Source of the DNA: Centroscyllium fabricii | Lineage: Eukaryota | Assembly (NCBI GenBank): GCA_051313645.2 | Contig: JBNRSN020000001.1 | Span: forward strand, 260,214,001-260,278,000 | Direction: 5' to 3' | DNA length: 64,000 bases | Shown: in pieces, positions 1-32,409 of the stretch | Position numbering within the stretch: the first letter of the stretch is position 1 | Layout: every line of letters starts with the position of its first letter | Translations under genes and position numbers: made by a program | The notes under the pieces: model-generated | Databases searched by the model: none | What the model was told of the DNA's origin: nothing | Seen by the model: the letters and a program-made list of their open reading frames with translations, nothing else

Positions 1-1254
1 AAGGCATTGCAACTAGCAGGACCACCAGCTACAACCCCCGGGGGAACGGGCAGGTAGAGAGAGAGAACGCCACGGTCTGGAAAGCCATCCAGTTAGCCCT
101 AAAGTCAAAAGACCTCCCAGTCACCCGATGGCAGGACGTCCTCCCTGAAGCACTCCACTCTATCCGGTCCCTATTGTGTACTGCCACTAACGCCACCCCT
201 CACGAAAGACTTTTTGCCTTCCCCAGGAAGTCAGCTTCCGGGACCTCGCTACCATCGTGGCTGCTATCTCCGGGACCGGTCCTGCTGCGGAAGCATGTGA
301 GGGGACACAAGGCAGATCCCCTAGTCGAACGGGTCCACCTCCTGCACGCCAATCCCCAGTACGCTTACATAACGTACCCCGACGGGAGGGAGGACACCGT
401 GTCCATAAAGGACCTAGCCCCAGCAGGGATCCCCAAAACCAGCCCGGCCAGGCAGCCCGAGCTCCCAAAACCCCCTGTGACGCCCCCCGAGCCACCGAAG
501 TCGAAGTACACGCTCCGACACGTGGGCCCAGTACCCCAGTATGTCCACAAGGCACCTGCGCGCAGCACGACCCAGCCCCAAGCCTGGATCCACAATGCGC
601 TCCCCCTAGAGCCAGAGGACGAAAGAGAGAGCGCGCCCCCTGCTGTCGAAATAAGGGCATCACCGCCACCCGGAAGTGACATAACCACCACCAGCCAACC
701 AGCAGAAAAGGAACAACCGACGCAACCAGCCACTCCACGACAACGAACACCACAGGCACCGCCAGCACGGCGAGCCACTCCACGACAACGAACACCACAG
801 GCACCACCAGCGCTGCGAAGATCAGCGCGGACAACGAAACCGCCTGAAAGACTAAACATATAGTCAAAAGAACATTAATTGTATATATTTCGTTAATGAG
901 CACCGTGTAATTAGTTGTTTTTTCTTTTTCCTTTTTGTACCCCCCGTGTGTTGTTCACCCCACCGTACTTTGGTTTTTAAAGAAGGGGTGAATGTGATAA
1001 ACTGTATATCACTGTAATACCATGTAACACCTGTATAGCACTGTAATACCATGTAACACCTGTATGAGATCCCAGGGACATACCTGGCGCCGCCCATGAC
1101 TCCTCCCCCACTGGAGGAGGTATATAAAGGACTGTCCCCATCCCCCGCACTATTCTGGGGACAGTCAGCTCGGTTGTGTATCTCTAACGTAGTTAATAAA
1201 AGCCTGATTATTATAACCTACTATTCGACTCCGAAGACGTTATTGACGGTTACA
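1..1254 (+). mobile_element. Gypsy LTR retrotransposon A, 3' part (integrase C-terminus, PPT, 3' LTR 993-1254); 5' part is outside the window
   Basis: Reading frame ends ...RRSARTTKPPERLNI at 863 and closely matches the integrase end of element B. PPT AAGAAGGGG ~980-988. LTR TGTGAT...GTTACA with TATATAA and AATAAAAGCC. Confidence 0.93.
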
Positions 1255-1370
1255 AATATATATTGTGAACTGCTGGGGTCCCAGGACAGATCCCTGCGGC
1301 ACCCCACTAGTCACCGCCTGCCACTCAGAAAATGAGCCGTTTATTCCAACTCTCTGTTTTCTATCTGATG
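1255..1370 (-). mobile_element. CR1 LINE RT fragment (target of Gypsy A)
   Basis: Minus-strand translation QRVGINGSFSEWQAVTSGVPQGSVLGPQQFTIYI, a CR1 RT motif. Confidence 0.8.
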
Positions 1371-4069: not shown

Positions 4070-5340
4070 AAATTACTCGAGTCTATAGTTAAGGATAGGG
4101 CGACTGAACACCATGAACATTTTCAGCTGATCAGCATGGATTTGTAAAGGTCAGGTCATGCCTGATTGAATTTTTTAACGAGGTGACTAAAGTAGTGGAC
4201 AGGGGAATTTTTAATTTTATTTTTATCCATTGATGAGATGTGGGCGTCGCTGGCTGGCTAGGCCTGCATTTAGTGCCCATCCCTAATTGCCCTTGAGAAG
4301 ATGGTAGTGAGCCGCCTTCTTGAACCGCTGCAGTCCATATGGTGTAGGTACACCCACAATGTTGTTAGGAAGGGAGTTCCAGGATTTTGGCCCAGCGACA
4401 GTGAAGGAGCGGCGATACAGGTCCAAGTCAGGATGGTGTGTGGCTTGGAGGGGAACTTGTAGGTGGTGCTGTTCCCATGCGTCTGCTGCCCTTGTCCTTC
4501 TAAGTGGTAGAGGTCGCAGGTTTGGAAGGTGCTGTTGAAGGAGCTTTGGCGAGTTGCTGCAGTGCATCTTGTAGATGGTACACACTGCAGCCACAGTGCG
4601 CCGGTGGTGGAGGGAGTGAATGTTGAAGGTGGTGGATGGAGTGCCAATCAAGCGGCCTGCTTTATCCTGAATGGTGTCGAGCTTCTTGAGTGTTGTTGGA
4701 GCTGCACTCATCCAGGCAAGTGGAGAGTATTCCATCACACTCCTGACTTGTGCCTTGTAGATGGTGGAAAGGCTTTGGGGAGTCAGGAGGTGAGACACTC
4801 GCCGCAGAATTCCCAGCCTCTGGCCTGCTCTTGTAGCCACAGTATTTATATGGCTGGTCCAGTTCAGTTTCTGATCAATGGTAACCCCCAGGATGTTGAC
4901 AGTGGGCGATTCAGCGATGATAATGCCATTGAATGTCAAGGGGAGTTTCGTTTGTTGGAGATGGTCATTGCCTGGCACTTGTGTGGTGCGAATGTTATGG
5001 ATGATATTTATATGGACTTCTGGAAGGCATTTGATAAAATCCCTCATAAGAGACTGTTAACTAAAGTTGAAGCCCATGGAATTGAAGGCAAATTATTGAC
5101 CTGGTTAGGAAATTGGCTGAGTGGCAGGAGACAGAGAGTAGGGATAATGGGTAGGTCCTCTCGTGGTGTCCCGTAAGGATCTGTGTCGGGGCCTCAACTA
5201 TTCACTGTACTCAAGCATAAAATTACAAAGCGATTTTGATAGATTAAGAGAATGGATTTCAGTCTAGGCAAATGTCAGGTAATCCACCAGAATGATGCCT
5301 GGACTCCAAAGGTTAAATTACAAAGAGAGATTACACAAAT
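4070..5340 (+). mobile_element. Degenerate CR1 fragment interrupted by another LINE
   Basis: QHGFVK-like segment at ~4130 and DFWKAFDKIPHKRLL...RQRVGI at ~5000-5160. Confidence 0.7.
4215..4990 (-). mobile_element. LINE 3' end (CR1/L2 group; ORF ends RFKKAAHYHLLKGN)
   Basis: ORF 4283-5047 contains ILGVTIDQKLNW...IYKAQVRSVMEYS; the same tail occurs in the SINEs at 14730, 23166, 34290 and 53020. Confidence 0.85.
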
Positions 5341-5598
5341 TAAGAATAAAAACAGAAAATGCTGGAGATACTCAGCAGGCCAGGCAGCATCTGTGGGGGA
5401 GAGAAACAGAGTTAACATTTCAGGTCAATGACCTTTCATCAGAACTGGAAAAAAGCAGGAAATGGAACAGATTTTTAAGCAAGTTTAGGGGCAGGGAAAG
5501 GGGGGAGGGGATGAAAGAACAAAAGGGAAGGTCTGTGATAGGATAGAAGGTAGGAGAGGTTAAGAGGCATTAAGAGACATTCAAGGTGAGAGGAGATG
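5340..5598 (-). mobile_element. Penelope-like element 3' end (family 2), split by the giant foldback; continues at ~13842-14050
   Basis: Homologous to 22350-22760; hammerhead motif at 5410-5446; remainder GGGGCCGAGGTTATGATC...GTCCAGAGG at ~13985-14040. Confidence 0.75.
5410..5446 (-). ncRNA. Minimal type I hammerhead ribozyme motif (PLE family 2)
   Basis: Minus strand reads AGTT-CTGATGA-A-AGGTC-ATT-GACCT-GAAA-TG-TT-AACT: core, stem I and stem II intact; stem III palindrome ACGT decayed to ATGT. Confidence 0.75.
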
Positions 5599-7333
5599 TG
5601 TAAGAAGTCACACAACACCAGGTTACAGTCCAACAGATTTATTTGAAAACCGAAAAATGTGGAGAGAGACACACCGGCTGTGAGCTTCTCAGCAGCTCTG
5701 CTCTGCTCTGCTTGGTGCTGTGTGAACAGGTTGCTCCACACCCCAGCTGCTCCTGGGGAATGCCAGTGCGGTGGGCCCAGTGCACAAGGCCCAGGGTGCA
5801 AGACCCAGAGGAGAGTTTCCTAGGTGGGAAGCCCAGCACGGAGGACCGCAGGCGGGGGGCCCAGGGCAGAGTGGCTGGTCGGCAGAAGCGGAGTCGGGGG
5901 ATGCTGTGGGTGAGCATGCTGTACAGTTTCTAAGGTTTAAGAATGGCCTCAGGCCCGGATGAGTTCCAGGGGCCTTGCCTATGCTCCATCTGGTGGCTGT
6001 GAGGCTTGTTTCATTGACGGGATCGGATTTGTGAGCCGCCATTTTGGTGGAGGAAAGACAGACTGTTTCCATCTGTAGCATGGCGCATGAGGGGCCATAA
6101 GATGGGAAAAGAGAACAGAATAAAAGTAGAAAAAAGGAAAATAAAAGGAAGATAAAAGACAAAGCAAAGTAATATCGGCAAGGAATAATGACTGTCTTGA
6201 TGGCTGGGTCCTGTGAGTGATAACAGCAAGAAGAGGGAAATTTGAGTCGTCGTTTTTCTTCTTTGACAGGATTTGAGAAAGTGGTCGGCTTCTTTCTGTG
6301 GAAAGCTTGAAGACTACGGACAAGGATCATGACATTATATGGTTAGATAACATCAAGTGAAATCAAGGAGTTATCAGAGTGCCAATAGGACTGGTGTAGA
6401 ACTGGTATTTACTTGTTTTGTTTAAGAAGTTTCAGGTTTCTGGTTAAAAGTAGTTTATTTGAAATTGATTTCTGATGTGGTTGTGGGACTTTGTATATTT
6501 TGGTGTTATTTACTGTGGATGTCTTCTTTAATGTACGAACGAACGCTCAAGTGAACGTGCGCATGCGGATACAATAATACGCACACATACACAATGGAAC
6601 TTAACTTCGACCGAATGGAGGGCCCACTCCCCAGGATAATTTGGCACCCTGCTGAGTGAGCGTGAGGCCTGTCTGGACGGATGAACGAATGCACGCATGC
6701 ACACAGGTAGACAAATGGCACACTTGCACGCAGACATGCACAATGGAACTTACGCTTGAACGAACGAACGGAGGAATGAATGACTGAATGATTAAGCGAT
6801 GCCAGTAGGACTGGCGTATATGGGATTTTTCTTCTCTTGGTTTATTGGATAGTGGCAGTTTGTACTGTAAACACTATTGATTTACCTGTAAAAATGTATT
6901 ACAGCTGTATTCTATTATTGTTGACCATAAAGCTTTTTGTTGTGGTCAATGAATGTAATGGATTTACTATGTAATTGATGAGTTGTATAAGTACTGTTGT
7001 ACTTGAATGTTAAAATAAGGAATTACCAATAGGACTGGCGTAACATTGGTTTTTGTTTCATTATGTGTACTTTTATTGTTAGTATTGTTGGTTTGTCTGT
7101 AGGATTTACCGCTGCATTTGTACTGTTAACCCTAGAGCTGTTTTTAAGGTTTTGCTTTATTGCGGCTAGTGAATGTAATGGATTTATTATGTAATTGGTG
7201 AGTTGTATAAGTACTGTTGTACTTGAATATAAAAATATAAACACCAGGTTATAGTCCAACAGTTTTATTAGAAATCACAAGCTTTTGGAGCACTGCTCCT
7301 TCCTCAGGTGAAGTCTTGAAAGCTTGTGATTTC

Positions 7334-10300
7334 TATAACCTTCAATTACGTTCTCGGAGTCGAGTAGTAGATTAGAACAATCAGGCTTTTATTCACTTCA
7401 GTTAGATTACACACCAGCAAGCTGACTGTCCCCTGGAATGGCACGGGGGATGGGGGCAGTCACTTATATACCTCCTCCAGCGGGGGAGGAGTCGTGGGCG
7501 GAGCCGGGTATGTTCCAGGTATCATCTCGCAGTGGAATACAGTACAGGTATAGGTTACATGGTGATACATGGTGATTAGCTATATACAGTGATATACACG
7601 TTTATCACATTCACCCCTTCTTTAAAATGAAAGTACAGCGGGGTGAAAAAGACTAATAATTACAAGAATGATCACAGGAAAAAAATATATATATTACAAA
7701 CAGGGTTCTTATGACTACAGGTTTAGTCTATCAGGCGGTTTCGTTGTCCGCGTTGATCTTCGCACCGCTGGTGGTGCCTGTGGTGTTCGTGGTCGTGGAG
7801 CGGCTGGTTGTGTCGGTTGCTCCATTGATGCTGGTCGACTAGTGGTGGTTGTTGTATTATTTCTGGGTGGCAGTGGTGCCCTTATTCTGACAGCAGGGGG
7901 CGCGTTCTCTCCTTCATCCTCTGACTCTAGGGGGCGCGCGTTGTGGATCCAAGCTTGGGGCCCGGTCGTGCTGCTCGCAGGTGCCTTGTGGACATACTGG
8001 GGTACTGGGCCCACGTGTCGGGGCGTGTACTTCGGCTTCAGCGGCATGGGGAGCGTCACAGGACGTTTTGGGTGCGCGGCCTGCTGGGCGGGGCTTCTTT
8101 GGAGCTCGGGCTGCCTGGCGGGGCTGGGTTTCGGGACTCCTGCTGGGGCTAGGTCCTTTATGGACACGGTGTCCTCCCTCCCGTCGGGGAATGCTATGTA
8201 AGCGTACTGGGGATTGGCGTGCAGGAGGTGGACCTGTTCGACTAGGGGGTCTGCCTTGTGTCCCCTCACATGCTTCCGAAGCAGGACCGGTCCCGGAGAT
8301 AGTAGCCACGATGGTAGCGAGGTCCCGGAAGCTGACTTCCTGGGGAAGGCAAAAAGTCTTTCGTGAGGGGTGGCATTAGTGGCAGTACACAGGAGGGACC
8401 GGATAGAGTGGAGTGCTTCAGGGAGAACGTCCTGCCATCGGGTGACTGGGAGGTCTTTAGACCGTAGGGCTAACTGGATGGCTTTCCAGACCGTGGCGTT
8501 CTCCCTCTCTACCTGTCCGTTCCCCCGGGGGTTGTAGCTGGTAGTCCTGCTAGTCGCGATGCCTTTCGCTAGCAGGAACTGGCGCAGCTCGTCGCTCATA
8601 AAAGAGGCCCCCCGGTCACTATGGATATAGTTGGGGTACCCGAACAGGGAGAAGATGCTACTGAGAGCCTTGATGACGGTGGCGGAGGTCATGTCCTGGC
8701 AGGGGATGGCGAAGGGGAAGCGGGAGTACTCGTCGATGACGTTGAGGAAGTACACATTCCTATTGGATGAGGGAAGGGGCCCTTTGAAATCGACACTGAG
8801 TCGTTCAAAGGGGCGAGTGGCCTTAATCAAGTGCGCCCGGTCAGGCCGGTAAAAGTGCGGCTTGCACTCCGCGCAGACCTGGCAGTTGCTGGTCATGGTC
8901 TTGACCTCCTCGATAGAGTAGGGGAGGTTGCGGGACTTCACAAAGTGAACCAACCTGGTGACCCCCGGGTGGCAGAGGTCATTGTGAAGGGTTTGGAAAC
9001 GGTCAGCCTGTGCGCTGGCACAGGTACCGCGGGATAGGGCGTCTGGGGGTTCGTTAAATATCCCGGGCCGGTACAAGATATCATAATTGAACGCGGATAG
9101 TTCAATTCTCCACCTCAATATCTTGTCGTTCTTGATTTTACCCCGTTCCTTGTTATTAAACATGAATGCGACTGATCGTTGGTCAGTCAGTAGGGTAAAA
9201 CGTTTGCCGGCCAGGTAGTGCTTCCAGTGCCGCACTGCTTCAACAATGGCCTGGGCCTCCTTTTCAACTGAGGAATGGCGGGTTTCGGGGCCTTGGAGGG
9301 TACGTGAAAAGAAGGCCACGGGTCTGCCCGCCTGGTTAAGGGTGGCGGCCAGGGCAAAGTCCGATGCATCGCTCTCTACCTGAAATGGGACGGACTCATC
9401 CACAGCGTGCATCGTGGCTTTGGCAATATCGTTTTTAATTCTGCAGAATGCCGAGTTGGCTTCTGCAGAAAGAGGAAAAGAGGTCGATTTAAGTAGTGGG
9501 CGAGCTTTGTCCGCATAATTGGGGACCCACTGAGCATAATACGCGAAAAATCCCAAACACCGTTTAAGGGCTTTGGGGGTGTGGGGGAGGGGAAGCTCCA
9601 TGAGGGGGCGCATGCGGTCCGGGTCTGGACCGATGACTCCATTCTCCACCACGCTGCCGAGGATGGCCAGGCGGGTGGTGCTAAACACACATTTCTCCTT
9701 ATTGTATGTTAAGTTCAGGGTTTTGGCCGTGTGGAGAAATTTTTGGAGGTTGGCGTTATGGTCCTGCTGATCATGGCCGCAGATGGTCACATTATCAAGA
9801 TACGGGAAAGTGGCTCGCAGCCCGTACCGATCAACCATTCGGTCCATCTCCCTCTGGAAGACCGAGACCCCGTTCGTGACGCCAAACGGAACCCTAAGGA
9901 AGTGGTAGAGGCGACCGTCAGCCTCGAAGGCTGTATAAGGACGGTCCTCTGGGCGGATGGGGAGCTGGTGATAAGCCGATTTTAGATCAATCGTGGAGTA
10001 CACTTTAAACTGGGCGATTTGGTTCACCATGTCCGCTATCCGGGGGAGGGGGTAGGCATCTAGTTGGGTGAACCGGTTTATGGTCTGGCTGTAGTCCACC
10101 ACCATCCTATTCTTCTCCCCGGTTTTCACTACTACTACCTGCGCTCTCCAAGGGCTATTACTGGCCTCTATGACCCCCTCTTTTAGGAGGCGCTGCACCT
10201 CAGATTTTATAAATACCATGTCCCCAGCACTGTAGCGCCTACTTTTGGTGGCGACGGGCTTACAGTCTGGGGTGAGGTTGGCAAAGAGAGATGGAGGGGC

Positions 10301-12003
10301 AACCTTAAGGGTTGAGAGGCCACAGGTAGTGTACTGGGGGTACCGCCTTGAGCCGCGGTTTCTGACCGTGAGTGAGGGAAGGGATCCGCCGAATGCCATC
10401 GTAACGCTCTGAAGGTGGCACTGAAAATCCAGTCCCAGGAGTAGGGGGGCGCAGAGCTGCGGCAGCATGTAAAAACTAAAGTCGTTAAACATTGCGCCCT
10501 GTACATTAAGCGTTACAATACAGCGCCCGGTGACGTCAGCGGATTCCGACTTGGACGCCATCGATATTCTCTGGCGCGCAGGGATTACTGTAAGGGAGAG
10601 GCGCTTTACAGTATTTTGGTGAATAAAACTTACTGTGCTCCCATTGTCGAACAGGCACACCACTTCTTCCCCGTTGACTTCCACCGGCATCATCGATTTC
10701 TCCAGTGGTTGAATCTTCCTCTGGTCTAGGCTCATGGATGCTAACACCGGGTCCTCCGAGTTGTCTTGATCCGGAGAGTAGTCCTCCAAGTCTGCTCCCC
10801 AAGATGGCTGCCACCATGTGTTGTGCTGTGGAGGTGGAGGCTGAGTCCAAGATGGCCGCTGTTGCTGCTGCTGCCACGAGGGCTGCTGAGTGGGGGATGG
10901 GTGAGCCCAATATGGCTGCTCCCCTGTTCCACATGCGGCGCTGCCCAGTTTGGATTTTGCGCTGGTGTTTTTACAAACCTTCGCATAATGTCCCTTCTTG
11001 TCGCATTTTGAGCAGGTCGCTTCTCTAGCAGGGCAGCTGCGTCTTGAGTGCTGAGGTTGTCCACAAAAGTAGCATTTAGCTTTAGCGTGGGCAGCTGTGA
11101 GTAATTCTTCTGCCGGTCGTTGCGCCAGTGCTGTCCAAGATTGCGGGGCTGGGCCCGTATAGTTACTTGAATATGAGGATAGGTCCATTGATGCGCTATC
11201 CAGCGCGTGCCCCAAGTCTGTAGTCGCCTGTAAGTCCTGGCCGTTCTGCTCCAGCAGTCTCTGCCTGGCATAGTCCGATTTTAGGCCTGTTACATAAGCG
11301 TCTCAGATGAGGCTCTCTACGTGGACTTGAGCCGTTTGCGCTCTGCAGTCACAGTCCCGTGCCAGAATTCTGAGGGCTCTTAGGAACTGCACACTTGACT
11401 CGTTATTTTGTTGCTTCCTGGTGGCGAGTATATGTCTCGCGTGGACTATGTTTGGTGCCCGATTATATTCCGTCTCGAGGATCCTGATGGCCTCTTGGAA
11501 CGATGGGGCGTCCACTATCATCGAGTACACTTGAGGGCCCACCCGGGCATGGAGGAGTCGCCGTTTTTGCTCCTCGGTCACTATGACCGCCGCGTTGGCT
11601 CTGATGTACCCTTCGAGCACGTTTCACCAGTGTGAGAAGGCGTTCGATGCTCCTGAAGATCGGGGATCAACTTCGAACACTGCTGGTTTAAGCATTGTGG
11701 TATCCATTTTACAGTAGTGAATAAAATTGTAACCTTCATTTACGTTCTCGGAGTCGAGTAGTAGATTAGAACAATCAGGCTTTTATTCACGACAGTTAGA
11801 TTACACACCAGCAAGCTGACTGTCCCCTGGAATGGCACGGGGGATGGGGGCAGTCACTTATATACCTCCTCCAGCCGGGGAGGAGTCGTGGGCGGAGCCG
11901 GGTATGTTCCAGGTATCATCTCGCAGTGGAATACAGTACAGGTATAGGTTACATGGTGATACATGGTGATTAGCTATATACAGTGATATACACGTTTATC
12001 ACA
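7334..12003 (-). mobile_element. Full-length Gypsy LTR retrotransposon B
   Basis: 276-bp LTRs 7334-7609 and 11728-12003 with ~5 substitutions; TSD ATTTC (7329-7333 / 12004-12008); PPT next to the 3' LTR. Confidence 0.97.
7715..11707 (-). pseudogene. Single-frame gag-pol of element B with two in-frame TGA stops in gag
   Basis: ATG at 11707 is in frame with the 1166-aa ORF. Domains: zinc knuckles (CYFCGQPQH..C, CSKCDKKGHYAKVC), protease LFDNGS, RT DLKSAYHQ and YLDN, RNase H SDASD, HHCC and DDE integrase. Stops at 11624-11626 and 11303-11305. Confidence 0.92.
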
Positions 12004-13334
12004 ATTTCTAATAAAACTGTTGGACTATAACCTGGTGTTTATATTTTAATATTCAAGTACAACAGTACTTATACAACTCATCAATTACATAGTAAATCCA
12101 TTACATACATTGACCACAATAAAAGCTTTATGGTCAACAACAATAGAATACATTTTTTCAGGTAAATCAAGTGTTTACAGTACAAACTGCCACTATCCAA
12201 TAAACCAAGAAAGAATCCCTATAAGCTAGTCCTACTGGCATCGCTTAATCATTCAGTCATTCATTCCTTCGTTCGTTCAAGCGTAAGTTCCATTGTGCAT
12301 GTCTGCGTGCATGTGTGCCATTTGTCTTACCTGTGTGCATGCGTGCATTCGTTCATCCGTCCCGGCGGCCACACACTCACCCAGCAGAGTACCACATTCT
12401 CCTGGGGAGCGGGCCCTCCATTCGGTCGAACGTAAGTTCCATTGTGTATATGTGCGTATCATTTGTCTACCTGTGTGCATGCGTGCATTCGTTCATCCGT
12501 CCTGGCGGCCTCACGCTCACCGAGCAGGGCTTTCCAAATTCTCCCGGGGAGCGGGCCCTCCATTCGGTCGAAGTTAAGTTCCATTGTGTATGTGTGTGTA
12601 TTATTGTATCCGCATGCGCGCGTTCACTTGAGCGTTCGTTCGTACATTAAAGAAGGCATCCACAGTAAATAACACCAAAATATACAAAGTCCCACAGCCA
12701 CATCAGAAATCAATTTCAAATAAACTACTTTTAACCAGAAACCTGAAACTTATTCAACAAAACAAGTAAATACCAGTTCTACACCAGTCCTATTGGCACT
12801 CTGATAACTCCTTGATTTCACTTGATGTTATCTAACCATATAATGTCATGATCCTTGTCCGTAGTCTTCAAGCTTTCCACAGAAAGAAGCCGACCACTTT
12901 CTCAAATCCTGTCAAAGAAGAAAAACGACGACTCAAATTTCCCTCTTCTTGCTGTTATCACTCACAGGACCCAGCCATCAAGACAGTCAATATTCCTTAC
13001 CGATATTACTTTGTTTTGTCTTTTATCTTCCTTTTATTTTCCTTTTTTCTACTTTTATTCTGTTCTCTTTTCCCATCTTATGGCCCCTCATGCTCCATGC
13101 TACAGATGGAAACAGTCTGTCTTTCCTCCACCAAAATGGCAGCTCACAAATCCGATCCCATCAATGAAACAAGCCTCACAGCCACCAGATGGAGCACAGG
13201 CAAGGCCACTGGAACTCATTTGGCCCGAGGCCATTTTTCAACCTTATAAACTGTACAGCATGCTTACCCACAGCATCCCCCCCGACTCCGCATCTGCCGA
13301 CCAGCCACTCTGCCCTGGGCCCCCCCCAGCTAGG

Positions 13335-13563
13335 TGTTGTGCTGGTAGCACAATAAATACTCGGACACAGATGATCAACAACAAACAAGAGGTCTTTACT
13401 CGGCCAACGCCCAGGTGGAAACTGAATACAACTTGCAGTACAGCGCTATTTATACTAGGTGACCTAAAGAGGTATTACAGTAATCTTCCACCATACACAA
13501 AATAGTGCAGCTCTGTTATAGGCTCACAGGCTGTCCATCATACGCCTTATCACATACACTACA
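13335..13563 (-). mobile_element. Solo LTR inserted in the right foldback arm only
   Basis: TG...CA ends, imperfect 5-bp TSD CTAGG/TTAGG, absent from the left arm; TATAAAT on the minus strand. Confidence 0.65.
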
Positions 13564-14729
13564 TTAGGGTCCTCCGTGCTGGGCCTCCCGCCCAGGAAAC
13601 TCTCCTCTGGGTCTTCCACCCTGGGCCTTGTATACTGGGCCCACCGCACTAGCATTCCCCACGAGCAGCCGGGGTGTGGAGCAGCCAGTTGACACAGCAC
13701 CAAGCAGAGCTGAGAACCTCACAGCCTGTGTGTCTCTCTGCACATGTTTCGGTTTTCAAATAAAACTGTTGGACTGTAACCTGGTGTTGTGTGACTTCGT
13801 ATATTTGTCCACCCCAGTCCAACACCGGCACCTCCACATCAGGAGGAGATGGTAATTGGGCAGGTTAAGAAACAAACGATTGCTCTAGATAAAGTTTAAA
13901 TTGTGCTGGCAGAATGAAAGACAGCTGGCATGTGGGAGAGAAGAAAAGAAAACACAAAACAAGTGTGGATAAAAAATATATGATAGGGGCCGAGGTTATG
14001 ATCAGAAATTGCTGAACTCTATGTTAAGTCCAGAGGCTCTAAAGTGCTGGAACTGTACTGCACTGTGATTGGTCATTCTGTGATTGGAGAGTTTACGGTC
14101 GGTGTTCTGTATTGTGATTGGTCAATCCGAACGAAAGCTTGTCTCCGATTGGAGAGTTTACGGTTCCGGTGCTCTGCGCTGTGATTCGCAGAGTCTTTTA
14201 TCCGATTGGCCAATCTGTGCCCGATGCTGATCTGTGATTGGTTGAATCACAGTAAGTGCTGCCAAATGCAAAATCAGACCGTTGATTGGGTGCGTGGTTA
14301 TTGTTGGGTCTGAGCCTCCAAGACCAATGAACCTACCATTAGCCAGTTCAGAATTGAGGCGAAACACATGCTTGCGAAGATGATTGGTGAGTCTGAGCTC
14401 TGTGGTGATTGACAGCACAAACCTGCATTGTTATTGGTACAATTACCACCTGGAGATTGTAATTGGCGGGATTGGCGTTCGAGGTTTTGTGATTGGCTGG
14501 TCCGAACTACCGCATGACTGAGTGGGCGTCAAGCCCTCTCGGCATTGTGATTGGCGGAGGTGATTCCTACTGCAATATGATTGGTCAGTGTTAGCTGGCG
14601 TTTGATTGGCATAATTGGGGAATCGCACTGTGATTGGCTAGTCTGTGTGAGTCTGCGATGGGTGAAACGGTAGTTTCGGGTACACTGTGATTGGCGGGGC
14701 GGGGCGGGGCTGCGCTGCCGTGCTGTGAT

Positions 14730-15187: not shown

Positions 15188-15380
15188 GCAGGGGTTATGT
15201 CACTAGATTGACAGGGCTTGAGCTGCCGCCCCGTGATTGGCGGGGCTGTGTGAGTTTGCGATTGGAAAAGCGGAGGTTTCGGGTACGTTGCGATTGGTCG
15301 GACCTGAGCGGACGCCGAGCTGTGATTGGCGCGGCTGGGGTACCGCCGCGCTGTGATTGGCGAGACTGCACTGCCGCTCT

Positions 15381-15890
15381 GTGATTGGCGGGGCTGTGTG
15401 AGTTTGTGATTGGAGAAGTGGAGGTTTCGGTTATGCTGTGATTGGCGGAGCTGCGCTGTCGCTCTGTGATTGGCGGGGCTGTGTGAGTTTGTGATTGGAG
15501 AAGTGGAGGTTTCGGTTATGCTGTGATTGGCGGAGCTGCACTGTCGCTCTGTGATTGGCGGGGCTGTGTGAGTTTGCGATTGGAGAAGCGGAGGTTTCGG
15601 CGATGCTGTGATTGGCGGAGCTGCACTGCCGCTCCGTGATTGGCGGGGCTGTGTGAGTTTGCGATTGGAGAAGCGGAGGTTTCGGCGATGCTGTGATTGG
15701 CGGAGCTGCACTGCCGCTCCGTGATTGGCGGGGCTGTGTGAGTTTGCGATTGGAGAAGCGGGAGGTTTCGTTGATGCTGTGATTGGCGGAGCTGCACTGC
15801 CGCTCCGTGATTGGCGGGGCTATGGTGAGTTTGCGATTGGATAAGCGGGAGGTTTCGGCTATGCTGTGATTGGCGGGACTGCGCCGCCGC
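15381..15890. repeat. 85-bp tandem repeat x ~6, three ATTGG per unit
   Basis: Unit starts at 15381, 15466, 15551, 15636, 15721 and 15807. Confidence 0.92.
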
Positions 15891-15999
15891 GGCGCTGTGA
15901 GTGGTCAGGCCTGAGCGGACGCTGAGCTGTAATTGGTGGGGCTGCGCTGCCGCTCTGTGATTGGCGGGATTGTGTGATTGGAGAAGCTGGAGGTTTTGG

Positions 16000-16338
16000 G
16001 GCAGGCGGTGCCATTGGCTGGGGCAGGCGGTGCCATTGGCTGGGGCTGCGCTGCCATTGGCTGGGGCTGCGCTGCCATTGGCTGGGGCTGCGCTGCCATT
16101 GGCTGGGGCTGCGCTGCCATTGGCTGGGGCTGCGCTGCCATTGGCTGGGGCTGCGCTGCCATTGGCTGGGGCTGCGCTGCCATTGGCTGGGGCTGCGCTG
16201 CCATTGGCTGGGGCTGCGCTGCCATTGGCTGGGGCTGCGCTGCCATTGGCTGGGGCTGCGCTGCCATTGGCTGGGGCTGCGCTGCCATTGGCTGGGGCTG
16301 CGCTGCCATTGGCTGGGGCTGCGCTGCCATTGGCTGGG
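16000..16338. repeat. 21-bp tandem repeat (GCCATTGGCTGGGGCTGCGCT) x 14 plus two 22-bp variants
   Basis: Directly visible; the ORF track shows MAAQPQP 14 times. Confidence 0.95.
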
Positions 16339-16483
16339 TCCGGTCGGCAGGGAGACGGGAAGCGGTTGTCAGGGGCCGATTGCGGGAAGGCCGAGGAGGA
16401 GCGGACTCCGGCTCGGAGTGTCATCCCGCGGGGGAAGGAAGGGCGGAGAGACCGAGGCTGGTGGTTTCACCGTCGAGTGAAAA

Positions 16484-16588
16484 ATGGGCTGCCTGTTCTC
16501 CCGAAAATCCAAGGGGAAAAACCGAGGCGTCAAGGCCGCGGCGGCCGAGGAGGAGCCCAAGCAATACAGCTGGGACAAGCGGGAGAAG
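16484..16588 (+). CDS. RP2: RP2 (XRP2, ARL3 GTPase-activating protein) coding exon 1
   Basis: Translates MGCLFSRKSKGKNRGVKAAAAEEEPKQYSWDKREK, matching the vertebrate RP2 N-terminus (Gly2/Cys3 acylation motif; PKQYSWD.REK). GTAAG donor at 16589, phase 0. Confidence 0.95.
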
Positions 16589-16629
16589 GTAAGGTAAGGG
16601 CCGGGCTGGGCTCGGCCGGAGTGCCAGGC

Positions 16630-16870
16630 CCCCGGGGCAGGGGAGAGGGTGAGGGCCGGACCCCCGGGGCGGGGGAGAGGGTGAGGGCCGGACCCCCGGG
16701 GCGGGGGAGAGGGTGAGGGCCGGACCCCCGGGGCGGGGGAGAGGGTGAGGGCCGGACCCCCCGGGGCGGGGGAGAGGGCCGGACCCCCGGGGCGGGGGAG
16801 AGGGCCGGACCCCCGGGGCGGGGGAGAGGGCAGTCCCCGGGGGGAGAGAGCGCAGTCCCCGGGGGGATGC
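16630..16870. repeat. G-rich ~26-32 bp minisatellite at the start of intron 1
   Basis: Repeated GGGCCGGACCCCCGGGGCGGGGGAGAGGGTGA; GC boxes and G-runs on the sense strand. Confidence 0.85.
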
Positions 16871-17110: not shown

Positions 17111-17555
17111 TTGGAGAGGCTGAGTAGATTGGGCCTCTACTCATTGGAGTTCAGAACAATGAGAGACGATCTTATCGAAACATATAAGATTGTGAAGGGG
17201 CTTGATCGGGTGGATGCGGTGAGGATGTTTCCACTGATGGGTGAGACTAGAACTAGGGGGCATAATCTGAGAATAAGGGGCTGCCCTTTCAAAACTGAGA
17301 TGAGGAGAAACTTCTTCACTCAGAGGGTAGTAAATCTATGGAATTTACTACCTCAGAGCTGTGGAAGCTGCAACATTAAATACATTTAAAACGGAGATAG
17401 ACAGTTTCCTAACGGATAGGGGAATAAGGGGTTTCGGGGAGCGGGCAGGGAAGTGGACGTGAGTCTAAGTTCGGATCAGCCATGATCCTATTGAATGGCG
17501 GAGCAGGCCCGAGGGGCCGTATGACCGACTCCTTCTCCTACTTATGTTATGTTCA
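17111..17555 (+). mobile_element. CR1 LINE 3' end
   Basis: ERLSRLGLYSLEF...RNFFTQRVVNLW and CR1 tail. Confidence 0.9.
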
Positions 17556-17619
17556 TTTGTTTACCCTTATGCCATTCAGTAGAGTCAAAAGTGGGATATG
17601 CAGAGATTCAATGATTCGC

Positions 17620-17883
17620 AGTCCAACGGTTTTGTTTGGGGTCGCGGGCTTTCGGGGCGCTGCTCCTTCCTCGGGTGGGGGAGGGGTTCGTCCAAAGACA
17701 GCACATATACAAGCTTGTGTGTGTGCTGTCTTTGGATGGACTTCTCTTTCGCCTGGGGTGGGAGGGGGGGGAGCGGCGCTCTGAGGGCTTGTGATTTCGG
17801 GTGAAACTGTTGGACTATAACCTGGTGTTGTGTGACTTCTTGCATTTGTCCACCCCAGTCCAACACCGGCACCTCCACATCAT
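17620..17883. mobile_element. Penelope-derived palindrome with A>G hypermutation
   Basis: Hairpin 17620-17816 centred on AAGCTT (17711-17716), followed by the PLE terminal extension ...CCGGCACCTCCACATCAT. Confidence 0.85.
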
Positions 17884-19045: not shown

Positions 19046-19248
19046 TGATGTGGAGATGCCGGTGTTGGACTGGGGTGGACAAATGCAAGAAGTCACACAA
19101 CACCAGATTATAGTCCAACGGTTTTATTTTAAATCACAAGCTTTCGGAGCTTTCTCTGTTCACCTGAGGAAGGAGCAGAACGCTCCGAAAGCTTGTGATT
19201 TAAAATAAAACCGTTGGACTATAATCTGGTGCTGTGTGACTTCTTGCA
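19046..19248 (+). mobile_element. Penelope-derived mini-palindrome with hammerhead (family 1)
   Basis: Inverted arms; TSD AAGAGCTAGTTA on both sides. Confidence 0.85.
19160..19198 (+). ncRNA. Minimal type I hammerhead ribozyme motif
   Basis: TCAC-CTGAGGA-A-GGAGC-AGAAC-GCTCC-GAAA-GC-TT-GTGA. Confidence 0.8.
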
Positions 19249-19348
19249 AGAGCTAGTTAAACCACAGGATGACCTCTTCCTGCAGCTCTGCTGAGATGTG
19301 GTGTGGTAAATTGCACTCTGAATTGGTGGAGCTGTCTGGTTATATACA

Positions 19349-19546
19349 AAAAGTCACACAACACCAGGTTTAAAGTCCAACGTTTTATTTTAAATCACAA
19401 GCTTTCGGAGCTTTTGCCCCTTCGTCAGGTGAACAGAGAAAGCTCCGAAAGCTTGTGATTTAAAATAAAACGTTGGACTTTAAACCTGGTGTTGTGTGAC
19501 TTTTTGCATTTGTCCACCCCAGTCCAACACCGGCACCTCCGCATTA
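19349..19546 (-). mobile_element. Penelope-derived mini-palindrome with hammerhead, opposite orientation
   Basis: Inverted arms; TSD TGGTTATATACA. Confidence 0.85.
19395..19432 (-). ncRNA. Minimal type I hammerhead ribozyme motif
   Basis: Minus strand reads TCAC-CTGACGA-A-GGGGC-AAAA-GCTCC-GAAA-GC-TT-GTGA. Confidence 0.82.
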
Positions 19547-20413
19547 TGGTTATATACAGGGTGCAGTCTACTTGTTGGACCGGAGTGGAATCATTCTTGA
19601 GGTGGGGTGGGGGTCTAGTTTCAGTAAACTAGAGTCTGGCATCATTACTGTAAGACTGCTGTCAGAAGTCAAGAATCTATTCCAATTGTAAGGGAAGCAT
19701 ATTGCTTTGGGCAGTGATGTCTGTTCCAGTTGATTTTTGGTTAGACATTATTATGTTGCTAATGTTCATTGTGAGACTTTTTTCTGCAGTTTCCTTTGCT
19801 GAAGTGCAGCAGCTCAGTTCAAACAGTTTTTTTTATCTCTCCCATTTTCTTCTTTTCGGCCTCTCCTGAAGGGATTGACTCCTCCTGTGTTGCAGTGCTG
19901 GCAGCTCCTCAGCTAATGGCATTTAACTGTGCAGGCTTTGTTGTTGCTCTTCTGAGAGTCTGGATGGCTAAAGTGGCAACGGTTTGCCTGTGAAGGGCTC
20001 CACAACCAATCCTGATCCCATTCTCGCCCGGGCCAGCGGCTGACCACAGGGAGCTGGAAGGCTCGGCCATTTGGGCAATCGCCACTCGGCTGAGAATGAA
20101 TTTTTGCGTTGCAATGAAATGCATGAAGGTGATGGCCTGGCGACGTGTCTCTTAAATCGTTCCCATCTCAATCAGCACAAATCCATGATTCATTGAGTTG
20201 GTGTTCTTAGTATTGTGATGTTTAACTCCAAGTGCTAGTGATGATCAGATCTTTGTCCCACATAATTTAGCTCTTTGCCTTAATAGCTTGCTGAATATTG
20301 ACCCAAATGTCATAGAAACATAGAAGATAGGAGCAGGAGTAGGCCATTCGGCACTTCGAGCCTGCTCTGCCATTCAATGAGATCATGGCTGATCATCCAA
20401 ACCCAGTACCCTG

Positions 20414-21105
20414 TGTGACCGAAATAACGACCTCGTGGACGAGTAGTGAGAAGGGTGAAACAATATGGCTTTTATTCGCTAAATGGTGGACATGCACCAG
20501 CTAGTTGACCGTCCCCAGGAATGGTCGGGGGATGGGAGATGGCCGCTTATATACCTCCTCCTGGGAGGGAGGAGTCGCGGGTGGGGCCAGCGTGGGCATG
20601 TCCAGGTAATCGCACGATAGGTTATGTACAACATGAATAATGGTACGATTACAGAGATACATATATATACATAACGGGGTGGGTATATACAAGGAAACAG
20701 TGGTTTACCACATTCACCCCTTCTTTAAAACAAAAGTCCGGCGGGGTGAACGCGACAGTTCTTTTCATTTACAAATTAAGTCGCTTCGGCGGCCTGGTGA
20801 TCCTGGTTGAGCGTCGCACCGCTGGTGGTGTCAGTGGTCGTGGAGTGGCCGGTCGGGTTGGTTGCATCGATGGTGATGATGCCGGTTGGCGAGCGGTGGT
20901 TGATAGCGTCGGTTGGTTTCTCGTTGGTGCCCTTGCAGTGACAGTAGGAGGCGCGCTCTCTCCTTCGTCGTCTGACTCTAGGGGGCATGTACTGTGGAGC
21001 CATGCTGGAGGCCATGCCGTGCTGCCCGCAGGTGCCGGGTGGACGTACCGGGGTGCTGGGTTCTCGTGCCGGGGAGCGTAACTTGGCGCCGGTGGCCATG
21101 TAGTT
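20414..21105 (-). mobile_element. Gypsy element D fragment: 3' LTR (20414-20712), PPT and pol C-terminal tail
   Basis: TG...CA LTR; TTCACCCCTTCTTT (PPT complement); minus frame ends RRSTRITRPPKRLNL; inserted into a SINE/CR1 tail (20332-20413). Confidence 0.85.
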
Positions 21106-21344
21106 TCTTATCCTGGTTCCTGCAACGAAGGCTAAGTTATTAATCTGCTTAATGTTAAACTAAAAGGCCTTTGGAGTGGGACTCTAATGGTTAAGTAATT
21201 AAATTAGTAGCTTGTTTTCAGTTAAATATATTACTTAAACACTTTGCTTACTTGCTCAAAAAATTTATGTTTTCCACTGCGAATCATTGAATCTCTGCAT
21301 AGCCCACTTTTGACTCTACTGAATGGCATAAGGGTAAACAAATG

Positions 21345-22220
21345 AACATAACATAAGTAGGAGAAGGAGTCGGCCATACGGCCCCTCGGGCCTGCTCCGC
21401 CATTCAATAGGATCATGGCTGATCCGAACTTAGACTCACGTCCACTTCCCTGCTCTCTCCCCATTACCCCTTATTCCCCTATCCGTTAGGAAACTGTCAA
21501 TCTCCGTTTTAAATTTATTTAATGTTGCAGCTTCCACAGCTCTCTGAGGTAGTAAATTCCATAGATTTACTACCCTCTGAGTGAAGAAGTTTCTCCTCAT
21601 CTCAGTTTTGAAAGGGCAGCCCCTTATTCTCAGATTATGCCCCCTAGTTCTAGTCTCACCCATCAGTGGAAACGTCCTCACCGCATCCACCCGATCAAGC
21701 CCCCTCGCAATCTTATATGTTTCGATAAGATCGCCTCTCATTCTTCTGAATTCCAATGAGTAGAGGCTCAACCTTTCCTCAAAAGTCAACCCCCTCATCT
21801 CCGGAATCAACCGAGTGAACTTTCTCTGAACTGCCTCGAGAGCAAGTATATCTTTTCTTAAATATGGAAACCAAAACTGTACGCAGTATTCCAGGTGTGA
21901 CCTCACCAATACCCTGTATAACTGCAGCAAGACTTCCCTGCTTTTACACTCCATCCCCCTTGCAATAAAAGCCACGATTCCATTGGCCTTCCTGATCACC
22001 TGCTGTAGTTGGATGCTAACCTTCTGTGTTTCATGCACCAGGACCCCCAGATCCCTTTGTACCCTAACACTTTGCAGTTTCTCTCCATTTAGATAATAAC
22101 TTGCTGTTTGATTTTTTTTCTGCCAAAGTGCATAACCTCACACTTTCCAACATATTCCATCTGCCAAATTTTTGCCCACTCAATTAGCCTGTCTGTCATT
22201 TTGCAGGTTTTTTATGTCCT
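21345..22220 (-). mobile_element. CR1 LINE 3' portion
   Basis: ORF 21436-22038 with CR1 ORF2 C-terminal motifs. Confidence 0.9.
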
Positions 22221-22349: not shown

Positions 22350-23750
22350 GTATAACAACAGAAACCGCTGGAGAAACTCAGCAGGCCAGGCAGCATCGGT
22401 GGAGAGAGAAACAGGGTTAACGTCTCGGGTCGATGACCTTTCTTCAGAACTGGAGAAACCGGGAGGGGCGATAGATTTTAAAGCTGGTAGGGGCTGGGGG
22501 AGGGGGCTGAAAGAACAAAGGAAAGATCAGCAACAGGCTAGAAGACAGGGGAGATAAGAGATATTGGGAGAAATTCAAAGAACATGGGATGGGTCTGGAG
22601 GTGTGCACGGCTCTGGCAGAGTAAAGGAAAAAAAGAAAAAGCCCAGACGAAAGTGTGGATTGAAAAAAGAGAAAATATATATAAAAAAAGTGTGGTAGGG
22701 GCCGAGGTTATGATCTAAAATTGTTGAACTCTACGTTTAGTCCAGAGGGGTGTAGAGTGCCTAAGCGAAAGATGAGTTGCTGTTCCTCGAGTTTACGCTG
22801 AGCTTCCGTGGAACAATGCAGCAGGCCACAGACAGTGAGGTCTGAATGGGAGTGGAGTGGAGAATTAAAGTGACAGGCCACCGGGAGCTCGGGGTCCCCC
22901 TTACGGACTGAACGGAGGTGTTCTATTCAATTCAATTCAATTCAAATTGCTTTATTGGCATGACAAGATACATCCTATGTTGCCAAAGCACAGAAAAAGG
23001 ACATATACAGTTGGACATACAAAATGCATAACCAGACGTATTGAATGAATAACTATGCATACACATACACATAAAAACCTGCATATACAAAGCGATCACC
23101 CAATCTGCGTTTGGTCTCCCTGATGTAGAGGAGACCGCATCGTGAGCAGCGAATACAATAATACGGGGAGGCGTTGGCGTAGTAGTAATGTCACTAGACT
23201 AGTAAACCAGAGGCTCAGTCAAATGCTCTGAGGATATGGGTTCAAATCCCACCACGGCAGCTGGTGGAATTTAAATTCAATTCAATTTAATTCTGGAATT
23301 AAATGTTAGTCCTAGTAATGGCGACCATGATAGCATTGTCGATTGTTGCAAAAAACCCATCTGGTTCACTAATGTCCTTTAAGGAAGGAAATCTGCTGTC
23401 CTTACCTGGTCTGGCCTACATGTGGCTCCAGACCCACAGCAATGTGGTTGACTCTTAATGCCCTCTGAAATGGCCGAGCAAGACACCCAGTTGTGAACAA
23501 CCGCTACGAAAAACAATAAGACTGCAGCAGTTCAAGAAGGCGGCTCACCACCATCTTCTCAAGGGCAATTCGGGACGGGCACTAAATGCAGGCCTAGCCA
23601 GCCAGCGACGCCCACATCCCATCAACGAATAAAAAAAAAAGTATACTAAATTGTAGGAAGTACACGTAAATCGCTGTTTCACCTGGATGGGGTGTTTGGG
23701 GCCTTGGACAGTGGGAAGGGGGGAGGTGTAAGGGCAGGTGTTGCCAACAG
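22350..23750 (-). mobile_element. Penelope-like element 3' part with GIY-YIG endonuclease remnant (interrupted by a SINE and a ~165-bp insert)
   Basis: Minus frames give FTCTSYNLVY / YCIRCSRCGLLYIRETKRRLGDR / EHLRSV...VACHFNS...LEEQQLIFRLGTLHPSGLNVEF; degenerate hammerhead at ~22415-22451. Confidence 0.85.
23166..23640 (+). mobile_element. tRNA-derived SINE (family 2), full length
   Basis: A/B-box head, central domain, LINE-derived tail and A-tail. Confidence 0.88.
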
Positions 23751-29524: not shown

Positions 29525-29927
29525 CGATAACAAAATACTGCAGATGCTGGAAATCCGAAATAACAACAGAAAATGCTGGAAAAACTCAGCAGTTCAGGCA
29601 ACATCCGTGAAGAGAGGAATAGGAGTCAACGTTTCGGGTCGGGACCCTTTATCAAGACTGAAATGAAACAGATGAGAAGGATAGAGGAGGGCTGGGAGAG
29701 AACAAAGGGACGAGAAGAGACAATGAGAGTTATTCAAAACGAGACAAGGTGGTAATAGGACAGAAGACAGCTCAAGATGTTCTCTCCCAGCCCTCTTCTG
29801 TCCTTCTCGTCTATTTCATTTCAGTCTTGATAAAGGGTCCCGACCAGAAACGTTGATTCCTATTTCTCTCTTCACGGATGTTGCCTGAACTGCCGAGTTT
29901 TTCCAGCATTTTCTGTTGTTATTTCAA
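29525..29927. mobile_element. Penelope-derived palindrome (family 2)
   Basis: Arms ~29556-29704 and ~29778-29925; degenerate hammerheads TTGATAAAGGGTCCCGACC(C/A)GAAACGTT. Confidence 0.8.
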
Positions 29928-31935: not shown

Positions 31936-32409
31936 AGTCTTAGTATCTCGAGTCGCATCACGACAGTTTTCCATCCCTGGCATAATTCTGGTGAATCTCT
32001 GCTGTACGCTGTGGGTTTTCTTTGAATGTCCTTCCTACAATGCGTTGACCAAAACTCTACACAGTACTCCAACTGTGGCCTGACTGTTTTGTACTAATTT
32101 ATCTTTACTCTTGTATTCTACCCCTACTGTATGCAGTAACAATACTGCTTCAGCTATCGTTTATTTATCTATAATAGCAAAATACTGCGGATGCTGGAAA
32201 TCTGAAATAACAACAGGAAACGCTGGAAATGCTCAGCAGGCCAGGCCGCATCCGTGGAGAGAGAAACTGAGTTAACGTTTCGGGTTCTGGACCCTTCATC
32301 GTTTATTTATCTATCAGGATAAAGATGTGCAGAGTGTGGCTGGTACTGGCTTCCCTTTTTTCCTCGCTCTCTGCTCCCCAACCCTGCGTAAGGGTTGTTG
32401 GGGTGAAGT

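Follow-up and report, generated by a model that had tools for sequence, protein, structure and literature searches.

Anatomy of the mirrored element

The DNA analysed is a stretch of 64,000 nucleotides from the shark Centroscyllium fabricii (GenBank assembly GCA_051313645.2, contig JBNRSN020000001.1, positions 260,214,001 to 260,278,000), hereafter the window. At positions 5599-13841 it contains a large inverted repeat whose ends resemble those of Penelope-like elements (PLEs) and whose arms each carry a non-coding cargo between copies of a short segment of the PLE pseudo-long terminal repeat (pLTR). Alignment of the left arm (5599-7275) with the reverse complement of 12004-13803 gave 1,418 aligned columns with 59 substitutions, together with 15 gaps; one gap is a solo long terminal repeat (LTR) nested in the right arm and the other 14 are indels. 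BLAST of arm against arm returned pieces 87-94% identical (E 1e-45 to 0). The arms also differ in the copy number of internal units, with 141 nt found in the right arm only and 220 nt in the left arm only. Since the arms differ by these substitutions and indels and by the nested LTR, a read or assembly artefact was ruled out, as had been argued in an original prediction made from the letters of the window, and the structure was confirmed as real.

A 35-nt segment of the pLTR occurs four times, as two direct pairs in inverted arrangement, and the cargo between the members of a pair has the same two junctions in both arms (Table 1). Cargo had been predicted as about 1.6 kb between repeats of about 30 bp; it was present in both arms, but the segment is 35 nt long and the right-arm cargo measures 1,480 nt when the solo LTR is excluded. 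Stripped of this LTR and of a nested Gypsy element, the mirrored element is 3,334 bp in size and not approximately 3.5 kb as first estimated. A 9-bp target site duplication (TSD), GAGGAGATG, encloses the entire unit (rough chance 0.0016, allowing seven offsets per side), in line with the TSD proposed beforehand, and its flanks are collinear with a paralogue of the target described below.

The element shows the features of Penelope-like insertions, namely direct and inverted pLTRs, a tail of 30-40 bp at one end, a type I hammerhead and an enclosing TSD. The tail, found on the right side only, is common to copies ending at 17882, 19046 and 19544, and the ends of the element match three other elements within the window. 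Its architecture had been likened to that of two mini-palindromes at 19046 and 19349, and their ends, one-sided tail, hammerhead and TSD were all found at 5599-13841. No Pfam family was identified in 12 frame translations of the left-arm cargo, neither one pointing to a coding origin nor the reverse transcriptase (RT) and GIY-YIG domains of an autonomous PLE open reading frame (ORF). As no linked RT gene was seen, the Penelope-type label is an assignment from architecture and hammerhead, not from a linked ORF.

The hammerhead was located near the apex, where it had been predicted, on the minus strand. Its stems are present and its predicted fold is like those of both mini-palindromes; the core reads AAAA in the giant element and GAAA in both mini-palindromes, the change lying at a CpG. 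The changed position is the general-base G of hammerhead chemistry, and the giant element's copy is therefore probably dead. Rfam returned no match at gathering level in either arm and two weak matches (E<=5, below gathering level) in the left arm, with none in the right; the hammerhead at 7275-7311 was not among them. The outer 35-nt segment begins 4 nt past the putative hammerhead cleavage site, as assigned from the motif. A family of minimal type I hammerheads has been described (PMC4209133), and hammerhead cleavage was reported as unnecessary in vitro (PMC11167929); here and below, published work is cited from the sections of these papers that were available.

The target of the insertion was an older, different repeat that bears a hammerhead of its own. 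The left flank (5346-5584) is 77% identical to 22352-22578 and the right flank (13948-14047) 78% identical to 22662-22760, in collinear order. The uninterrupted paralogous target at 22352-22760, inside the window, provided the empty-site comparison; because the flanks match this one repeat in order, a single target was interrupted once. Pieces of the older family lie at 5345-5598, 13852-14047, 22352-22760, 29559-29923, 32206-32300 and 38529-38654, with hammerhead motifs at 5442 (minus strand) and 38591 (plus strand), and pairs at 29559/29923 and 38529/38654 are likewise inverted.

Two LTR elements were inserted later. The LTRs of the Ty3/Gypsy retrotransposon at the apex are 98.5% alike over 274 nt, and its ORF (7715-11302) contains, by Pfam, a zinc knuckle (weak), protease, RT, RNase H and integrase. 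Gypsy pieces related to one another, at 65-80% similarity, occur at four places in the window (1-1261, 7334-12003, 20423-21080 and 44287-46691), the long ORFs of such pieces lying at 7715-11302 and 43954-46908. The solo LTR in the right arm has no second copy within the window. Palindromes that are long and close are prone to instability, a risk reduced by a longer spacer (PMC7999016); the Gypsy element inserted at the apex may thus have favoured persistence of the giant palindrome.

Table 1. Features of the mirrored element, its target site and its nested insertions (positions in the window).
Feature	Position	Strand	Remarks
Target, left half: older, different hammerhead-bearing repeat	5345-5598	-	motif at 5442, minus strand
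TSD, left copy	5590-5598	+	GAGGAGATG, 9 bp
Left outer pLTR end without tail	5599-5648	-	contains outer 35-nt segment 5614-5648
Left-arm cargo	5649-7239		1,591 nt
220 nt in left arm only	6979-7198		register slides within 82-bp direct repeat 6936-7017 / 7156-7237
Left inner 35-nt segment	7240-7274	-	
Minimal type I hammerhead motif of the pLTR	7275-7311	-	core GAAA changed to AAAA, probably inactive
Apex and beginning of right arm, split by Gypsy insertion	7312-7333		
Later Ty3/Gypsy LTR retrotransposon	7334-12003	-	LTRs 7334-7609 and 11728-12003; 5-bp TSD ATTTC (7329-7333, 12004-12008)
Right inner 35-nt segment	12005-12039	+	identical to left inner copy (36/36)
Right-arm cargo	12040-13753		1,714 nt (1,480 nt without solo LTR)
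Two tandem copies of 140-bp unit	12319-12594		one copy in left arm
Later solo LTR	13335-13563		229 nt, TG...CA ends; 5-bp TSD CTAGG/TTAGG (4/5 match)
Right outer pLTR end	13754-13802	+	contains outer 35-nt segment 13754-13788
Penelope tail, one-sided	13803-13841	+	39 nt
TSD, right copy	13843-13851	+	
Target, right half: older repeat	13852-14047	-	

The cargo as a multi-copy family

In the left-arm cargo a GC-rich part is followed by a purine-rich one and then by three related T-rich modules beginning at 6382, 6802 and 7026, the first of which is split by a CpG-rich block at about 6530-6800. An LTR element or a DNA transposon with terminal inverted repeats (TIRs) was rejected as the identity of the cargo, as its ends show neither TG...CA with a 4-6 bp TSD nor TIRs. 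A 217-aa antisense frame had no relatives among 1.84 billion protein representatives, no tRNA genes were found in the cargo, and the window holds no second cargo copy by BLAST at word size 7 (best outside match 26 nt, E 0.085). An exact 20-mer was found at no locus in metagenome or viral contigs; a second 20-mer gave five metagenome loci and one viral locus, all six matching over just 21-38 nt around the pattern, which we took as chance. Folding of the region of the 140-bp unit gave z-scores of -2.4 and -0.2 on the two strands. Each 140-bp unit (6620-6670, 12260-12650) forms a similar long stem-loop in the left-arm plus orientation, the region as a whole (z -0.24) being not unusually stable.

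The stretch was contained wholly or partly in 20 of 22 sequencing runs from eight studies, at shares of 0.29-0.50 in 13 of them, several of these run assemblies comprising only 37-274 million letters. Contigs and depth were analysed over 5300-7400 in four runs from four studies (X1, X4, X10 and X16), the other 18 contributing their listed share only, which was small or nil in X15 and X17-X22. All 22 cargo bins were covered, end to end, in each of the four runs, and as many as 69 (X1) and 77 (X16) contigs overlapped one cargo site, with tens of divergent contigs per site in these two runs. The median summed cargo depth, which is not a copy number, was 16,105 in X1, 494 in X4, 25 in X10 and 24,508 in X16, with listed single contigs in X1 at depths of 10-34; as a rough inference, organism A may hold hundreds of cargo copies. 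A cargo confined to a single locus had been named beforehand as the outcome that would speak against a mobile family. The cargo proved to be a multi-copy family in related organisms, in four runs of four. The PLE end was 39 to 11,000 times deeper than the cargo, and joints in the runs that skip about 1,628 nt correspond to the plain PLE end.

Depth also bears on the internal units by which the arms differ. The 220-nt stretch confined to the left arm was at family depth in the runs compared, and the 140-bp unit, single on the left, reached close to double the median depth in X4 and X10. The family unit therefore probably has both the 220-nt stretch and two 140-bp units, giving about 1.9 kb, each arm at this locus having lost one of them. 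Internal cargo units are further multiplied in other members of the family; in run X16 the bins 5797-5870 and 6933-7003 were at about five times the cargo median, and a joint in X1 returns from 7012 to 6380. At five sites (5675, 5938, 5958, 6018 and 6265) no X1 contig carried the letter of the left arm, so that the locus itself was not evident in X1. At 5675, 55 letters remain to the end of one X1 contig; among other explanations, this weakly fits a branch of 31-letter words from the PLE segment at about 5620.

Origin of the two arms and of the cargo

Three other copies of this PLE end are present in the window and all are palindromes. The mini-palindromes 19046-19248 and 19347-19547, with TSDs of 12 and 11 bp, share the same central junction sequence; the arms of each are identical (66/67 and 68/68), yet the two mini-palindromes differ from each other, which indicates that arms are coupled within an insertion. 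In the third copy (17618-17883) the arms mismatch at 31 of 94 columns, in every case as expected from A>G on the plus strand, and these changes fall on the same strand in both arms (17 and 14 of the 31); a rougher alignment gave 31 against 1 (p=1.5e-8). On the simplest reading of these letters, the copy would be a genomic copy of an ADAR-hyperedited hairpin RNA, with A-to-I editing preceding reverse transcription. That A>G affects one and the same strand in the two arms indicates that both can be copied from RNA of one polarity. No ADAR-type skew was found between the arms of the giant element (18 versus 13, p=0.47), which may accordingly stem from a single hairpin transcript, a jump between two RNAs of the family or a fold-back.

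A second large inverted repeat (17126-17622 / 21276-21774, 97%) has a left arm that ends where the edited PLE palindrome starts; we take it to resemble a CR1-type 3' end. GC-rich minisatellite arrays lie at 15313-16867 and 46921-47321 (periods 21, 32, 45 and 85).

Several observations bear on whether the two cargo copies arrived together. In both arms the cargo sits at the same site with a 35-nt duplication, and the segments within an arm differ at two positions that are matched across the arms, both outer copies sharing two letters and both inner copies the alternatives. Among the 38 cargo rows shown, beside 127 further rows, there are 26 in which at least 90% of X1 depth carries a letter other than that of the left arm. 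The right arm has the family letter in 13 of these 26 and a gap in four, leaving nine at which a non-family letter is common to both arms; six are left after removal of three alignment-ambiguous sites, two of the six being of CpG type. The distance between the arms was 28/826, compared with 23/844 between the left arm and four X10 contig pieces; the former is 1.2 times the latter, as against a factor of about 2 expected for independent draws. Taken together, the position-paired segment variants, the shared letters and the low distance between the arms favour derivation from a common template in a single mirrored insertion.

The same data make it quite improbable that a 200-bp mini-palindrome came first and a site-specific retroposon then struck both arms at the same site in two independent events. 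If each arm carried a fresh TSD, the 35-nt copies would pair within arms and not across them, and two separate hits leave the six common non-family letters to be explained; with cargo depth at 1/39 to 1/11,000 of PLE-end depth, double occupancy should moreover be rare. What speaks for independent hits is that each arm is without a different internal unit that the family has, that the arms diverge more (4.2%) than the inner segments (0/36) or the TSD (0/9), and that target-specific non-LTR elements exist.

A local duplication at the DNA level was the least favoured reading, and a very improbable one. It was among the origins originally proposed, as an inverted duplication seeded by a PLE hairpin, and would have copied a one-armed, cargo-bearing PLE insertion through a fold-back primed by a hairpin or through break repair. 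The junctions and letters common to the arms are accounted for in this way, and the apex is a natural hairpin. However, the 9-bp TSD around the whole is intact and no flank DNA was duplicated, the left arm ends where inverted PLE copies end (without a tail), and copy 17618-17883 indicates that in this PLE family both arms can be copied from RNA.

The Penelope-type foldback origin first proposed is supported as regards PLE architecture and a single mirrored insertion; the TSD around the whole, the tail on one side and flanks collinear with an uninterrupted paralogue all point to one PLE insertion. Our best explanation, to which we give somewhat less than an even chance, is a cargo-bearing, non-autonomous Penelope subfamily. 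The insertion would have been made once, by PLE machinery acting in trans, from a non-autonomous derivative carrying about 1.9 kb of non-coding cargo inside its pLTR between two 35-nt segments. Reverse transcription would have started at the tail and proceeded through the outer segment, the cargo and the inner segment to the hammerhead region; production of the usual inverted second copy would then have mirrored the cargo as well, with a 9-bp TSD generated in the older repeat. Afterwards, one internal unit flanked by direct repeats would have been deleted from each arm, a mutation would have arisen in the hammerhead core, and the solo LTR and the Gypsy element would have been inserted. The arms may have been partly homogenised by gene conversion. 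If this is correct, other cargo copies are presumably bound to PLE ends too. The layout of the cargo also fits template jumps during PLE reverse transcription, given how close the outer segment begins to the putative cleavage site.

Several findings weigh against a cargo-bearing Penelope subfamily mirrored in one event. Divergence between the arms is uneven (30/385, 12/600 and 17/431, that is 7.8%, 2.0% and 3.9%; p=5e-5), the longest run of identity between them is 234 nt (p=0.0014), and 14 indels to 59 substitutions are many for decay alone. As three of the six shared non-family letters fall within the 234-nt run, the sharing could at least partly reflect a species-specific subfamily or gene conversion. 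No junction of another cargo copy was found among the rows listed, beyond which there were 1,813 further loose-end rows and 210 further joint rows, and cargo depth did not fall from the tail side (Spearman p 0.16-0.86 in the four runs, bins varying several-fold). PLE copies are usually 5'-truncated (PMC8557442); with depth showing no slope in either direction, polarity does not decide the origin of the cargo. Lastly, the plain PLE end is recovered exactly when the cargo is taken out together with one segment, and the composition of the cargo goes from GC-rich to T-rich with an A-rich end in antisense, both as in an inserted non-LTR element.

These last two properties would also fit the main rival reading, that the cargo is a separate non-autonomous retroposon of Tx1/L1 type, which reached the pLTR by targeting or by a single landing and left the 35-nt segment as a long TSD. 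One loaded donor PLE end would then have been retrotransposed and mirrored by the PLE machinery, and the family would owe its copy number to the mobility of the cargo itself. In formal terms the 35-nt duplication amounts to an insertion with a TSD, consistent with the run joints that correspond to the plain PLE end, and polar composition with repeated T-rich 3' modules is in keeping with such an element. Tx1 families and SINEU-3 target other transposons, SINEU-3 with a 16-bp TSD (PMC4494074), and all the evidence shared between the arms is accounted for in this way too. We nevertheless regard this as doubtful. At 35 bp the duplication exceeds the 16-20 bp TSDs given in the published sections available; no ORF remnant was found in the 12 cargo translations or the 217-aa frame, and there is no clear poly(A) or depth gradient toward the A-rich end. 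A PLE-targeting Tx1 family was not found in a limited literature search that did not extend to Repbase. A more specific form, which we consider unlikely, is that the cargo is a retroposon family with a specific target in the pLTR, a few bases beyond the hammerhead cleavage site, that it generates a 35-bp TSD there and that the inverted-copy step of Penelope then amplifies it as mirrored pairs. Were it true, the cargo would be a retroelement parasite using two mobilisation systems.

Significance and comparison with known systems

If the cargo does define a non-autonomous Penelope subfamily, Penelope ends would serve as vehicles by which kilobases of unrelated sequence are mirrored, so that long palindromes and sources of double-stranded RNA are seeded through shark genomes, and capture as seen at few loci in rotifers would extend to vertebrates, in a family of many copies. 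With two long arms that show differences at many sites, such a family would also allow asking how the inverted PLE copy forms, by hairpin RNA, RNA jump or cDNA fold-back; its formation is among the steps yet to be validated (PMC11167929). If, on the other hand, the cargo proves to be an ordinary element that came to lie in a single donor, this locus is a nested-repeat curiosity.

A multi-copy cargo inside a pLTR and mirrored in both arms was not found in the available literature, which did not include the shark consensus sets of Repbase and Dfam, where the family may already be contained; nor did we find literature on non-autonomous Penelope elements in shark genomes. The original prediction had further suggested a retrozyme-like vehicle, which was not borne out. 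Non-LTR (metazoan) retrozymes (bioRxiv 10.64898/2026.07.22.740005) are likewise non-coding, PLE-related and equipped with a type I hammerhead, but as described in the sections available they form head-to-tail tandems of 51-972 bp with a hammerhead per unit, whereas the unit here is inverted and 1.6-1.9 kb long. A retrozyme was thus ruled out by geometry, 5599-13841 containing one hammerhead with a mutated core and no tandem array of hammerhead-bearing units. The transposon-targeting Tx1 elements and SINEU-3 (Kojima 2015, PMC4494074) are alike in that a non-LTR-like insert occupies a fixed transposon site with a flanking duplication. Their targets, in the sections available, are Mariner, Harbinger, piggyBac and LTR elements and not PLEs, and neither Tx1 homology nor a small nuclear RNA (snRNA) head was found in the cargo.

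The closest likeness is with EN+ Penelope-like insertions (Arkhipova et al. 2013, PMC3846280; Craig et al. 2021, PMC8557442), which show an inverted copy joined at the 5' side, a tail at one end, an 8-10 bp TSD and a hammerhead in the repeat. PMC3846280 describes inverted pLTRs accompanied by a tail and a TSD of 8-10 bp, and PMC8557442 a PLE tail of 30-40 bp and non-autonomous PLE derivatives; the tail has been explained as the sequence between two start sites of reverse transcription (PMC11167929). The element described here differs in having no RT or GIY-YIG ORF and in that its inverted copy spans 1.7 kb of non-PLE cargo, not the pLTR alone. Cargo capture, too, has a precedent in the rotifer Adineta vaga, where an intron-bearing gene (NRPS) is carried between Pen3a pLTRs and non-coding stretches had been taken up between solo pLTRs, with Pen1 spacers of 0.9-1.5 kb (PMC3846280). 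The element resembles these cases in holding foreign sequence of comparable size between direct pLTR copies, and in its inverted pLTR and its TSD. In the rotifer, however, the spacers are unique and present in one orientation, as far as the available sections describe them, whereas the cargo in C. fabricii is multi-copy, lies inside the pLTR with a 35-nt duplication and occurs in both arms. Inverted pLTRs, tails and cargo capture are therefore already on record (PMC3846280, PMC8557442), and what is new relative to the sections available is cargo mirrored in both arms. The element is a larger version of a known insertion structure and not a new system.

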